Shown here in pieces: positions 732-19,248 of a stretch of 64,000 nt of DNA. Every line of letters begins with the position of its first letter. Within the stretch, counting starts at the first letter, position 1. A program made the position numbers and the translations under genes. Source of the DNA: Nitrososphaerota archaeon (GTDB lineage: Archaea; Thermoproteota; Nitrososphaeria_A; Caldarchaeales; Caldarchaeaceae). The notes beneath the pieces were generated by a model, which was given only the letters and a program-made list of their open reading frames with translations, had not been told where the DNA came from and did no database searches. The stretch is taken from the NCBI GenBank assembly GCA_041641305.1, contig JBEPYN010000002.1, positions 448,001-512,000 on the forward strand, written 5' to 3'.

Positions 732-1175
732 CTAGAATCGGGGCACCTCCCATGGGCTGCTCGGCTGCGGCGGCGTGGTACCAAAGCCAGCGCCTGTCGT
801 GGCCACGGTTGCGGCAAAGTAGAGCAGGTAGACGCCTAGGGCTGCCAGCCCGGCGAGTATCAGGGCGCTGTCAAGAAGCTGGCCGCCGGCGTCCTTGGTT
901 CTATGGCTCCCCGTCGGCAGGAACTTTAATGCTAGACCTGAGCCCAGCAACGCAGCCGCTATCAGGAGCAGGAGCTGCCCAAACCCTGACACCGCGCCCT
1001 GAAACGTGTTGGCTATCGCCGCAGGCCCTCCTCCTTGCCCCGTCTGTTGAGCCATTGCAGCAAGCAGCAGGTGCGCGTTGGCAGCCGCTAGGCTTATGGT
1101 CGTGGTCGCGAGCCGCAGCCTACCGCTTCTCAGCCCTTTTACGAGGTTTGACCCTTTCCGGGTGTGGTGCTTCAT
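732..1175 (-). CDS. CedA1/TedC/VirB2-like pilin precursor
   Basis: Basic leader, then two hydrophobic helices joined by LALKFLPTGSHRTKDAGGQLLDSAL, similar to CedA1-type pilins. ATG 1175 lies ~35 bp from a TATA-like element. Confidence 0.6.
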   Translation of the reverse strand: MKHHTRKGSNLVKGLRSGRLRLATTTISLAAANAHLLLAAMAQQTGQGGGPAAIANTFQGAVSGFGQLLLLIAAALLGSGLALKFLPTGSHRTKDAGGQLLDSALILAGLAALGVYLLYFAATVATTGAGFGTTPPQPSSPWEVPRF

Positions 1176-1196
1176 GGCTTTCTCGAGACCATCCTC

Positions 1197-1588
1197 AAAT
1201 ACGATAATACTTAAGCTTTGGCTGAATCTGAACACTTTTGGTCGGCCACCTAGGTCGGCCAGTTTGGTCGGCCACTCTGGTCGGCCAAAGCTTATAAAGG
1301 AGCATTTTTCATATAACCCCGTTATGGCCGCTTCTTAATATAGCTATGTTCGCATTTTTCGCACTTGGCTCTATAAGCCTTTTATCACCATTTCTTTACT
1401 TTTTAATACTTTTTCAGGAATTTTTTGGTTATCTGGTATTTTTTTGTGTGCAAATTACCTTCCGCATTATTGATAAGCTTATCGGTATGGTTTTTCATGT
1501 TGGTCGGCCACATACTGTATATATTTTTGCTGGTCGGCCAGTTTGGTCGGCCACTCTGGTCGGCCAAAGCTTAAGTATTATCGTGTTT
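1197..1588. promoter_or_regulatory. Divergent control region: 26-bp inverted repeat containing BRE/TATA-like elements plus 8 operator/iteron-like boxes
   Basis: AAATACGATAATACTTAAGCTTTGGC (1197-1222) versus GCCAAAGCTTAAGTATTATCGTGTTT (1563-1588), one mismatch. AT-rich core between the repeat clusters. Confidence 0.7.
1239..1566 (+). repeat. Eight (T/A)GGTCGGCCA boxes, mostly at a 13-bp period
   Basis: Copies start at 1239, 1252, 1265, 1278 and 1501, 1531, 1544, 1557. The box is an imperfect palindrome (TGGYCGRCCA). Confidence 0.95.
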
Positions 1589-4199: not shown

Positions 4200-4466
4200 G
4201 TGCAGAAGAAGTTGACAAGTAGTCTGCTGGTACCCGGATTGATAGCTCTGGCATTGGTCTATGGGATACAGTTGGTCAACGAGGGGCATCTGTTCGAAGG
4301 TGTTCTGTTGATGGTTGTAGGTATCTTTGGCGGAGTGTATGCTGAATACCTTCTGCAGAGATGGCGCATGAGTTACTGTGACTACTGCGGGGGCAAGATG
4401 AGGAAAGATGTCGGCGGACTATACTACTGCGACAGATGCAGACGCTTCGCTCCTCGACGGGCCTAA
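4200..4466 (+). CDS. Two-TM membrane protein with C-terminal Zn ribbon
   Basis: GTG 4200; two TM helices; CDYC...CDRC. Confidence 0.7.
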   Translation: MQKKLTSSLLVPGLIALALVYGIQLVNEGHLFEGVLLMVVGIFGGVYAEYLLQRWRMSYCDYCGGKMRKDVGGLYYCDRCRRFAPRRA

Positions 4467-4480
4467 GAGGGCGTGCAGGC

Positions 4481-5944
4481 ATGTGGGCTAGAGTTTTTGT
4501 GACACTGATAATCATCTTTGGCTTCGTAGGGTACGCTTGGTATGCAGCCATGTTAGCCTCTCAGAGATTGTTTGAACGTGGAATCATCAAAGAATCACCT
4601 ATGCCAACAATAGATGTCAAAACAATAACAACACAGGTGGCTCAGTACACAGGCATCGCTGTAACCCTGCTAATGATAGCCATTGTGGTAAAGAGGGTCG
4701 TTGAATCGGGTAGACTTCTGGGCGTCATTAAAGTCTCCGACCTTCAGAGGCATCTACTACTGCTTGGACCAACCGGTAGCGGCAAAACAAACACTGCTAA
4801 ACAGGCGATTGCCTTAGCCGTACGTCGTGGTGTCAGGGTAATCGTCATCGACTGGAAAGCCCTCTTCTCTCCGCCAGCGTTTTTCACGTCTCCCCAGCTC
4901 AGTTCCGCCGCATAGGGTTCGCGTGGAGCTTCTGGCGGAGCTGGGAGGGCCCAGAAAGGCGAGTACGTTAACTTCATCAAGGGAGCCTCCGTCGTCAGGA
5001 AACTCAACGTGTGGGACAACGGTGGTAGGTCGCCGAAGGAATGCGCTGTCCTCGCTGTCGAGACATTGAGAGAAATTACACGCGATATCGCAGATGTTTC
5101 ATCCGCCAGCGCAGCCCTTCTCCTGAGGGAGCTTGTAAAGCTCTACGGGAGAGGGGTGCCGAAGACATCCGACGTAGTTTCAGCTCTTGAGAAGTTCATA
5201 AACACCGCAATGGCGGAGCGGAGACTTGCCGAGGCGAATATGGCTTCTGCATTGCTTAGAAGGATGATGTGGCTCCAGATAGACGAGGAGAGGCCTGCGA
5301 AGAACATCATAGGCTCTGACAGGGTTGTTGTCTACGACTTATCAGAGCTCGGAAGCGTCTACCTGAAAACCATCTACAGCCTCAGCATCCTTTCAAAGAC
5401 CTACTACGGGGCCCTTAGACAGGGACAGTCCCAGAAACTAGAGACGCTGGTGATTGCAGAAGAGTGCCAAAACTACATACGTGGTAGGCGTTTCGACGAG
5501 CCTCCGTCGATTGGTGAGAGAATGGCTAACGAGCTGAGGGCCTACGGCGTCGGCATGGTCCTGATAAGCCCGGACCCTGTCCAGATACCCTGGCACCTCG
5601 CCAGAGACGTTGCAGCAGTAATATCCATAGGACTTCAGGCGATACCCGACAGCGTCAAGGACCTGTTGAGAACAATTGACCCCAAACAGGCGAAGAGAGT
5701 AATGATGGGTAAGAAGGCCTACGTCTATTACAACGGCAAACTGAAGACAGCCTCTCCGCCCAAGCCTCCAAAAGAAATAGAACTAAACGTTGACGTAAAA
5801 GAGGTGATTGAAGAGACTAAGCCTGAGGAGACTGTCGAGACTACTGCTACACAACCAGACAACTCTGGGGCAGAGGAGAGTGTTCAGACAATGCCGATAG
5901 AGCAGAAGGAGCCTTTGGAGGAGGCCCAGAGAGGCGTGAATTGA
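4481..5944 (+). CDS. Membrane-anchored HerA/VirB4/CedB-like ATPase, spliced join(4481..4857,4957..5944), 454 aa
   Basis: Two N-terminal TMs, Walker A GPTGSGKT, IDWKGEY restored by splicing, Walker B LVIAEECQN, ELRAYGVGM motif. Confidence 0.85.
4858..4956 (+). other. 99-nt archaeal-type pre-mRNA intron (bulge-helix-loop) in the ATPase gene
   Basis: Central helix CTGG 4852-55/CCAG 4951-54; AAA at 4856-58 and 4955-57; inner stems GCCCTCTT/GGGAGGGC and CTCCGCCAG/CTGGCGGAG; in-frame TAG at 4913-15. Confidence 0.85.
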
Positions 5945-5990
5945 TAGAGAGCCGGGGAAACCTCCTCTAAGGCTTGAAGAAGATGAAGAG

Positions 5991-6755
5991 ATGGTCGATG
6001 AAGACGAAGAGCAGGTGACAGAGGCCCCGCATGGGCGCATACCCCCACGGGAGGGAGTCCCGCCAAGATGATGTGGTGGTTGTGAGCGCCCCGGGAAAGC
6101 CGAACCACAGACACAACAAGAAAAAGCAGAAGAGGAGCAGGCAGATGAAACCACTGGTGGATTCCCCCTCCACGGCCACATGGTCGTGGAGGAGGCTTTC
6201 GCTGACGAGTCGGTTCTACGATGTGTTAGATGTGGGGCTTCGGCCTCGCTGACAGAGGCTACACAACTCATGGAGAAGCCTTGCCAAGAACCTCGAATGA
6301 CGCAGGATAACCTTCAGACCCGGTGCGGATGTGGACGGCCGGCGACAAAGCTTATGCCGTCATACGACCCGATAACCATGACGTTTAAAGACCTCTGCCT
6401 GTGCGACGGCTGTGCCAACGACTACCTCAACATCCTCAGGAGGTCAGGCCCAGCCCTAGGCAAGATGAGGGGGAGAATACCTGCGAACGGCTATTGGTTC
6501 AACCTTTACAACACCGTCTTCCAGGAGCTGGCTGGGACATACCCGTGCCCAGCCTGCGACCAGTTCTTCGACGACCTGTATTCCGCGGTCAAACACTTCG
6601 GCGAAAAACACATCGACAAGACAAAGACTCCAGAGGAGGTTGTCATAGACGGGGTTCCCGCCCTTAGGACATGGCAATACATATGGTGTACAAAATGTCT
6701 GAGGTTCTTCGAGAACGAGCGACATTTCCGTTCACATCTCCGAGACCATAGGTGA
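5991..6755 (+). CDS. Multi-Zn-finger protein with acidic N-terminus, spliced join(5991..6031,6098..6755), 232 aa
   Basis: One frame interrupted by a single TGA inside a BHB-bounded insert. CxxC motifs and C2H2-like fingers (CPAC...HFGEKH, CTKC...HLRDH). Confidence 0.75.
6032..6097 (+). other. 66-nt canonical BHB pre-mRNA intron
   Basis: Outer GGC 6023-25/GCC 6099-6101; central CCCG/CGGG; bulges CAT 6030-32 and AAA 6096-98; inner GGGCGC/GCGCCC; in-frame TGA at 6069-71. Confidence 0.8.
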
Positions 6756-15490: not shown

Positions 15491-16417
15491 GTGTCCATGG
15501 TTGTTTTCTTTGGAGCAGTCATTCCACGCTATGACGTGGATTTTAGAAAAGTTGTGGACACGGTTTTGATGTTTGAGGAGCTTGGTTTTTCCTCGCTCTG
15601 GGTAACTGACCACATGCAGCCCCGCCGCGCCTCACGCATCCTCGAGTCATGGACGCTTCTCTCAGCGCTTGCGCCTGTGACGGATGCGAGACTGGGAACG
15701 GTTGTCCTATGCTCATGCTACCGCCACCCCTCTCTTCTCGCGAAAATGGCCGCAACCCTCGACATCATCAGCAACGGACGCCTCGAGCTCGGCGTTGGAA
15801 CAGGGTCGGAGCCACAGGCCGAGGAGCTAGAGGCCCTTGGAATGGAGACATGGAAGCCCAAAGAAAGAATTCCACGTCTGCGAGAATATGTTGAGGTGCT
15901 GCGGCTGCTGCTTTCCGACGGCGACCCCGCCACCTACCAAGGCAGGTTCTACACGCTCAAAAAAGCGATGCGCAACACGCCCACGGTCCAGAAACCACAT
16001 CCACCCATATGGATAGGTGCGCGAAAAGGGAAAATGGTTAAGCTGGCGGCCGAGATAGGCGATGGCTGGAACTTCTACGGCGAAACACTGACAGAATACA
16101 GAGAGGCCGTCAAACATTTTGACGAAGAATGCGACAAGCTAGGCAGAAGACCGAGCAAAGCAATCTTCACAAACCTCCTAATCTACAAGGATGAAACGGA
16201 CAAGAGGGAGAAGATAAAGCACCTCGGCGCCTTCGAAACCGAGGAACAAGCCCTGCGCAAAACCTTTACACTCCTACACGGAACCCCTGACCAAGTCATC
16301 AAACAGGTTGAGGAGCTACAGAGTCTCGGCGTCGGACTCGTCATCCTACGAGACATGGACCCAGAAACATCAAGCATAAAAGACTTCGCCAAAGAAATCA
16401 TCCCATCCTTCAAATGA
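15491..16417 (+). CDS. LLM-class (luciferase-like, probably F420-dependent) oxidoreductase
   Basis: LWVTDH, RHPSLLAKMAATLD..SNGRLELGVG, PVQKPHPPIWIG-like motif. Confidence 0.9.
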   Translation: MSMVVFFGAVIPRYDVDFRKVVDTVLMFEELGFSSLWVTDHMQPRRASRILESWTLLSALAPVTDARLGTVVLCSCYRHPSLLAKMAATLDIISNGRLELGVGTGSEPQAEELEALGMETWKPKERIPRLREYVEVLRLLLSDGDPATYQGRFYTLKKAMRNTPTVQKPHPPIWIGARKGKMVKLAAEIGDGWNFYGETLTEYREAVKHFDEECDKLGRRPSKAIFTNLLIYKDETDKREKIKHLGAFETEEQALRKTFTLLHGTPDQVIKQVEELQSLGVGLVILRDMDPETSSIKDFAKEIIPSFK

Positions 16418-19143: not shown

Positions 19144-19248
19144 GGGCCCGTAGCTTAGCATGGATAGAGCGCTGGCCTCCGGAGCCAGAGGTCGTGAGCG
19201 GCGGTACGGAAGTGCCGCGCCGGCAGGGTTCAAATCCCACCGGGCCCG
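19144..19248 (+). tRNA. tRNA-Arg(CCG) with a 30-nt non-canonical intron (19197-19226) at position 51/52
   Basis: Acceptor GGGCCCG/CGGGCCC; anticodon arm CTGGC-CT-CCG-GA-GCCAG. The T arm GTGGG-TTCAAAT-CCCAC forms after cutting bulges TGA and AGG around helix GTCG/CGGC. TTTAAATA upstream. Confidence 0.93.

Follow-up and report, generated by a model that had tools for sequence, protein, structure and literature searches.

A predicted 66-nt bulge-helix-bulge intron in the linker between the ATPase and zinc-finger reading frames of a Caldarchaeales genome

The closest described system comes from Crenarchaeota, whose cbf5 pre-mRNA contains a bulge-helix-bulge (BHB) intron (Watanabe 2002; Yokobori 2009, PMC2738675). 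A study of 2020 gives cbf5 as the only case within a coding region, and adds one case in a 5′ untranslated region (UTR) (PMC7714728). In the literature searched, cbf5 is the sole archaeal gene for which splicing of the EndA type has been established within the coding sequence (PMC2738675, PMC7714728). We have analyzed 64,000 nt of a Nitrososphaerota archaeon (Caldarchaeales, Caldarchaeaceae; assembly GCA_041641305.1, contig JBEPYN010000002.1, positions 448,001 to 512,000 of the forward strand), termed here the window. Within this an open reading frame (ORF) for a zinc-finger (Zn-finger) protein, listed as starting at position 6180, is preceded by a 66-nt insert with BHB ends and, further upstream, by the frame of a HerA/CedD-like ATPase. 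From the comparisons presented below we consider that the insert is very probably a genuine BHB intron that is spliced. We also think it likely, with less assurance, that in this genome the intron lies within the ATPase gene.

Like that of cbf5, this would be a short BHB intron within coding sequence, for which the tRNA-splicing endonuclease and ligase are needed to restore the frame, and its presence or absence differs among relatives. Unlike cbf5, the gene encodes the ATPase of a mobile element rather than a housekeeping pseudouridine synthase, and the site is not that in the cbf5 catalytic domain. It lies in a low-complexity linker, where the exonic parts of the BHB recur as the peptide motif EAP-x-AE. 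There are several introns per gene, with between zero and two in the linker of different relatives, and splicing is here predicted from sequence. The BHB in the 5′ UTR of Haloferax volcanii HVO_1309 (PMC7714728) is likewise an mRNA substrate for EndA outside tRNA and rRNA, but its intron is untranslated and interrupts no reading frame. The non-canonical and multiple tRNA introns of Thermoproteota and Caldiarchaeum (PMC3082918, PMC5829648) share the BHB geometry and the rule for cutting, whereas here the RNA is a translated mRNA, and the exons are constrained by coding and not by tRNA structure. The ATPase resembles CedD, CedB and conjugative TraD-like proteins of the HerA-FtsK type in its P-loop HerA domain (DUF87), its N-terminal membrane segment and its DNA-transfer neighborhood. 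It differs from them in scoring far below the NCBIfam equivalog cut-offs, and in an acidic linker and C-terminal Zn-finger that we have not found described there.

The minimum-free-energy folds of 6010–6120 and 6018–6108, with which the centroid structures agree, both contain a BHB at 6023–6101. An outer helix pairs GGC (6023–6025) with GCC (6099–6101), a central helix of four base pairs joins CCCG (6026–6029) to CGGG (6092–6095), and the inner helix is formed by GGGCGC (6033–6038) and GCGCCC (6086–6091). There is a bulge of three nucleotides on each of the opposite strands, CAU (6030–6032) and AAA (6096–6098). All 3 + 4 + 6 pairs are G:C, giving the hBHBh′ geometry, and the order in the 5′ to 3′ direction on both sides is helix, central helix, bulge, helix, i.e. 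the handedness of tRNA introns. Archaeal EndA cuts after the second base of each bulge. Strict application of this rule, which is consistent with PMC5829648, removes 66 nt, with GCCCCGCA/AGCCGAACCA as the predicted junction. The junction falls in phase 2. At linker junctions the split codon takes two bases from the first bulge and one from the second, and here the joined codon is CAA (Gln). From the ATG at 5991 there is a single in-frame stop, TGA 6069–6071, and this lies inside the insert; the spliced reading (MVDEDEEQVTEAPQAEPQTQQEK..., or in a longer form MVDEDEEQVTEAPQAEPQTQQEKAEEEQADETTGGFPLHGHMVVEE...) runs on into the ORF at 6180. A preliminary description of this DNA had proposed a canonical BHB with a 66-nt insert at these positions. 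Folding bears this out, and strict excision reproduces the junction predicted there. The same description held that the frame is open to ATG 5991 apart from one TGA. The single stop stands, and the openness in fact reaches back to 5940. Its further statement, that the intron lies in a low-complexity region and not in a catalytic motif, agrees with the position of the site in the acidic linker.

The significance of the 66-nt insert comes from its conservation in relatives. We used the upstream ATPase piece and the Zn-finger part as tblastn queries, and both were present in eleven loci, with 44–74% identity for the ATPase parts; homologues of the Zn-finger part are 59–74% identical, and NCBI names one of them Candidatus Caldarchaeum sp. 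The tblastn frames of the two parts are offset by the insert length modulo 3, a result that is independent of the motif search. A scan of the linkers for strict BHBs supplied candidate introns; each was cut out by the strict rule, and the open frame through the Zn-finger part was then measured. The frames merged in seven loci of relatives, representing about five lineages, starting at 121–302 aa and ending at 310–695 aa. The open frame was extended from 220 to 695 aa in L009, from 247 to 577 aa in L002, from 247 to 591 aa in L015, from 302 to 677 aa in L019 (two introns, 78 and 77 nt), from 257 to 310 aa in L018 (85 nt), and from 121 to 455 aa and 229 to 614 aa in L023 and L020 respectively (two introns each). 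A relaxed version of 65 nt in L021 shares these boundaries, and its remainder modulo 3 fits as well. Taking the window and related loci together, frame restoration includes the frame-shifting versions of 64, 65, 77 and 85 nt, and the junction peptides are uniform (...E-A/T-P-[x]-A-E...).

In L009, L002, L015, L019, L018, L020, L023 and L021 the ATPase frame is continued by the linker exon. There are also intronless fusions, in which ATPase, acidic linker and Zn-ribbon lie in one ORF. These are L022, with an open frame of 563 aa in a genome of the same order, and P0034/L030, of 516 aa with a Pfam DUF87 match. Since relatives have the exon in frame, and since intronless fusions exist, it is most probable that the ATPase gene of this family ends with the Zn-finger frame as its C-terminal exon. 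The fused relatives surfaced only through a representative search and the genome loci.

In L021 (1528–1653), L022 (1504–1632) and L030 the tail of the ATPase consists of the N-terminal Zn-ribbon only (~70 residues). The Zn-finger region is thus modular, the tails of some relatives being without the C2H2-like half.

The insert of the window can be aligned directly with those of its closer relatives. The sequence GAGGCCCCG-NNN-GGGCG...CGCCCCGGGA[AG]AGCCGA is invariant in the window, L008, L009, L010, L002 and L015 (DNA alignment and RNAalifold). The first bulge differs among these loci (CAT, GTT, GTA, CGA and CAA), and the second is AAA or AGA. The intron is 66 nt in the window and L010, 69 nt in L008 and L009, and 64 nt in L002 and L015, and the interior in the last two is unrelated to that of the window. 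In the DNA alignment the flanking exons gain or lose bases in multiples of three, a restriction that does not hold within the insert. Comparing the window with L008–L010, identity is 81–96% over the BHB halves and the 5′ interior of the intron, 72–77% over the Zn-finger core, and 42–73% over the linker exons. The intron is the most conserved DNA in the region. In the linker introns of more distant relatives the same geometry is built from other pairs, with CCCC:GGGG, GTCC:GGAC and GCCC:GGGC in the central helix, and GAC:GTC and AGC:GCT in the outer helix.

The 5′ interior of the intron at 6039–6065 (ATACCCCCACGGGAGGGAGTCCCGCCA, with a CGGGA/TCCCG hairpin) is 93–96% identical to that of L008–L010, and a similar stretch, ACCCCC-CGGGAGGG, is found in the intron of L018. 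This conservation points to either an unexplained constraint or a recent transfer. Copies of the intron were sought in the genome and it is single-copy; a repeat or mobile-DNA nature of the intron was rejected on this ground. A search of Rfam over 5880–6200 gave no meaningful RNA family match. A C/D-box small RNA within the intron was considered from the presence of AUGAUGU and GUGA in the window, and was rejected; by eye the boxes are loose in L008–L010 and absent in L002. Two Logan contigs, L027 and L028, were examined as spliced transcripts and rejected, as both start inside the unspliced intron. Contigs from a dozen or more run assemblies start at one and the same base, corresponding to 6051 of the window, which suggests that the assembly graph branches here because strains differ near 6049, where the window has C and L008–L010 have A. 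A scan of genome contigs gave one relative, which ended at the contig edge without upstream context.

In the window, L008 and L010 the ATPase ORF (5009–5944 in the window) is out of phase with the exon frame. Connection of the two in the window would require removal of a second, smaller insert of ~28 nt. In these three loci it is flanked by a conserved outer helix of 12–15 bp (...GGAGGAGG / CCTCCTCTAAGG..., with strands at 5915–5927 and 5955–5970 in the window) and a 3′ AAA bulge, and the region has a fold z-score of −3.1. L008 and L010 have a central helix TCCG:CGGG, and a 5′ boundary GAGGCTCCG AG/A that is like the rest of the family. Excision of 16 nt in L008, 29 nt in L010 or 28 nt in the window leads to an in-frame EEA[P/Q]-R-PPLRLEE, and L009 and L002, which are without the mini-insert, read straight through (G/E)PL[R/K]LEE. 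The exon between the mini-insert and the main intron is 69 nt in L008 and 63 nt in L010; these lengths, like that in the window, are multiples of three. The predicted junction for the 28-nt fusion is GGCCCAGAG/ACCTCCTCT, and that for a 29-nt version, leading to a stop, is GGCCCAGA/ACCTCC. Relaxed motifs are cut only by the (alpha-beta)2 and epsilon2 endonucleases (PMC5829648), and a broad-specificity (alpha-beta)2 enzyme in the host would explain the tolerance of a relaxed motif such as this. We infer from these alignments that the link to the ATPase in the window runs through the relaxed insert, with boundaries as tabulated.

A number of observations weigh against an intron within the ATPase gene. 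Because a scan of the 1.66-Mb genome gives 8 strict 3 + 4 + 6 BHBs and equally 8 of their mirror images, a control that EndA should not recognize, and because the fold-energy z-scores are modest (−1.6 to −1.8 for 6010–6120 and 6018–6108), the BHB motif by itself does not exceed chance. A scan for 3 + 4 + 3 BHBs with Watson-Crick pairs only gave 45 matches in the window. Its position, on the other hand, is unlikely to be fortuitous: at the genomic density of hits, the chance of a strict motif in the right strand of the ~190-nt gap at 5991–6180 is about 5e-4. The helices are invariant in the orthologues, so that there is no covariation, and the compensatory pairs of the distant relatives are partly circular as evidence, their introns having been picked by a scanner that requires pairing. 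A search of proteins of 383–2000 aa closely related to the Zn-finger part gave no fused one. As regards the mini-insert, its central helix is degenerate in the window, with two to three of four pairs, and a canonical count of 29 nt there gives ...AQNLL-stop and no fusion; the 28-nt register is kept solely by homology with L008 and L010. Since its flanks are homologous in the window, L008 and L010, the three together amount to one single one-in-three test of frame. Lastly, ATG 5991 is confined to the lineage of the window, which would fit a recent gene fission.

Such a fission forms the basis of an alternative in which the intron is real, but belongs to a separate Zn-finger gene starting at ATG 5991, the ATPase having come to end at TGA 5942 in this lineage. 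In its favor, ATG 5991 follows the ATPase stop and is in frame, the mini-insert of the window has a degenerate central helix, and an in-frame ATG lies within the mini-insert of both L008 and L010. However, the codon corresponding to ATG 5991 is GAG or GAA in L008 and L010, which are the closest relatives, and the ATGs of those two are missing from the window, leaving no conserved start. By eye there is no Shine-Dalgarno-like sequence upstream of 5991, the ATPase stop is not conserved in position, and every other lineage has the exon in frame with the ATPase. The conserved helix and AAA bulge around the mini-insert, with their low z-score, also argue against two separate genes. We consider this explanation unlikely, though a serious rival for this lineage, and the proposal in the preliminary description that translation starts at ATG 5991 is not sustained by the comparison.

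A second alternative is that there is no splicing at all. The BHB would then be an intergenic hairpin with a structural role, for instance in termination, RNA stability or the binding of a protein, and translation of the Zn-finger protein would start at ATG 6180. The equality of the motif count with the mirror control and the modest z-score would be consistent with this, and gene callers put starts at 6180 or inside the insert. Yet Met 6180 is replaced by Leu or Ile in relatives, and in L008, L010 and L002 there is no in-frame ATG, GTG or TTG between the insert and the motif F/Y-x-x-HGH. This motif (FPLHGH in the window) is conserved upstream of Met 6180, and homologues align from AE... through FPLHGH. 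An AlphaFold2 model of 6162–6752 (predicted local distance difference test score 91.6) is ordered from residue 2, and Met 6180 is residue 7, so that the predicted fold starts upstream of it. As the called N-termini of homologues (...GFGRPGRAE and MQRRPGKAE) are translations of the 3′ end of the intron, the gene callers must have begun inside the insert. The multiples of three in the indels on both sides of the insert, and frame offsets equal to the insert length modulo 3 in several lineages, are further arguments against an intergenic element, and we regard it as very improbable. These data agree with the preliminary description on two points: a start at 6180 is unlikely, and removal of the intron restores an open frame that lengthens the Zn-finger reading upstream. 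Least credible of all is that EndA cuts the BHB without joining the exons, parting the ATPase and Zn-finger messages at a processing site like those of rRNA stems or the HVO_1309 5′ UTR: EndA does process substrates other than tRNA introns (PMC7714728), but the RNA would start at A6098, 82 nt before the first AUG, relatives would have no AUG ahead of the conserved domain, and the coding signal runs on both sides of the insert.

Returning to the spliced intron, the enzymes that it would require are encoded by the host. The genome, which is 99% complete, has two EndA-family genes (PF01974) of 182 and 185 codons, and encodes RtcB (PF01139). For Caldiarchaeum, a heterotetrameric EndA and non-canonically placed tRNA introns are reported (PMC3082918). 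In the pre-mRNA the intron would contribute both its ends to the BHB, which would pair with the end of the upstream exon (GGCCCCG) and the first bases of the downstream one (GCC) to complete it. A two-subunit EndA would cleave the CAU bulge after CA and the AAA bulge after AA, RtcB would ligate the exons to create the Gln codon, and the intron would probably be circularized, with a predicted junction ...CCCCGGGAA/TGGGCGCAT. Translation would pass from the linker into the Zn-finger domain after splicing, and the spliced gene would encode a membrane-anchored, DNA-translocating ATPase of the HerA/CedD-like type, 708 aa in length with a linker of ~94 residues and a C-terminal Zn-ribbon/C2H2-like domain. 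An unspliced message would stop at TGA 6069 (or 5942), leaving the ATPase without the Zn-finger domain. The predicted peptides are QVTEAPQAEPQTQQEK from splicing of the 66-nt intron, and EPLEEAQRPPLR from fusion to the ATPase. We infer the splicing event, and any regulatory role, from the fold, the frame arithmetic, the conservation, the intronless fusions and the genes for the enzymes.

The RtcB gene (G000:C1:535991-538729, L029) has its profile match in two blocks ~1.4 kb apart within one open frame of 975 codons. This looks like an insertion of the intein type.

We might speculate further that a family of BHB introns, whose exon halves spell E-A/T-P-x-A-E, has multiplied in the repetitive acidic linker to give zero, one or two copies, and that splicing chooses between the bare ATPase and fusion isoforms as a host-dependent gating of the mobile element. 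This is a tentative proposal, and on balance an unlikely one. If splicing were confirmed, it would mean that archaeal gene callers systematically split such genes; here the 708-aa protein appears as three or four ORFs with false starts in introns. It would also mean that BHB introns can spread within coding DNA, and that mobile elements depend on, or exploit, the tRNA-splicing machinery of the host. The locus would be a multi-exon mosaic gene on a mobile element, with one intron in a disordered linker and an intron number that varies among relatives, and would offer a concrete system for studying competition between splicing and coupled transcription-translation in archaea.

The coordinates of the proposed gene are collected in Table 1. 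Removal of the 99-nt, ~28-nt and 66-nt inserts gives a stop-free product of 708 aa, and this model requires the removal of the first of these. ATG 4436 is the first Met of a 726-aa open frame obtained when the three inserts are taken out. The piece 4436–4915 matches Pfam DUF87 (HerA) at 34.2 bits, above the cut-off of 23.2. Among NCBIfam models CedD comes closest, with 35.9 and 32.4 bits against an equivalog cut-off of 600, and the HerA/CedD-like assignment signifies membership of the superfamily only, not a CedD equivalog. The last 9 nt of exon 3 contain the 5′ strands of the outer and central helices of the BHB. At the C-terminal end, Pfam zf-C2H2 matches the Zn-finger domain weakly (14.9 bits against a cut-off of 25.2), and Foldseek found no significant match for this domain in the PDB, the best matches being C2H2 arrays with E >= 0.05. 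By eye the Zn-finger part has C-x2-C...H-x4-H motifs and invariant Cys/His columns.

Table 1. Proposed exons and predicted inserts of the ATPase/Zn-finger gene, in window coordinates.
Feature	Position	Strand	Basis
Proposed exon 1: N-terminal part of ATPase, Walker A motif	4436..4857	+	DUF87 match; ATG 4436
Candidate 99-nt sibling intron	4858..4956	+	CTGG:CCAG central helix; AAA and AAA bulges; 8-bp inner helix; no outer helix
Proposed exon 2: ATPase core and start of acidic linker	4957..5931	+	ORF 5009-5944; weak CedD match; tblastn
Putative relaxed (HBh′-like) mini-intron, ~28 nt	5932..5959	+	conserved outer helix and 3′ AAA bulge; holds TGA 5942-5944 of the ATPase ORF
Proposed exon 3: acidic linker module, 72 nt, ...PPLRLEEDEEMVDEDEEQVTEAP	5960..6031	+	frame open from 5940
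Predicted 66-nt BHB intron, phase 2	6032..6097	+	strict BHB; only in-frame stop; 64/66/69-nt orthologues
Proposed exon 4: end of linker and Zn-finger domain (Zn-ribbon, then C2H2-like fingers)	6098..6755	+	homologue alignment; AlphaFold2

Downstream of the gene are frames for an XPD-like helicase and a PriL-like primase. Elsewhere in the window, ~2.7 kb past a luciferase-like monooxygenase ORF (15491–16417), Rfam gives a 105-nt tRNA match at 19144–19248 (42.5 bits) that was missed by ARAGORN; this is presumably an intron-containing tRNA. Two further features were observed in the related loci. In L018, a relative of the same genus, the C-terminal region of the ATPase shifts frame at ~930–1000 (reverse strand) between ...RDIFQ and LRMLRKKTLVF..., which could be a further small intron or a frameshift. 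In L019 the 78-nt BHB insert of the linker (1129–1206, reverse strand) is in frame and stop-free, and could be translated whether spliced or unspliced.
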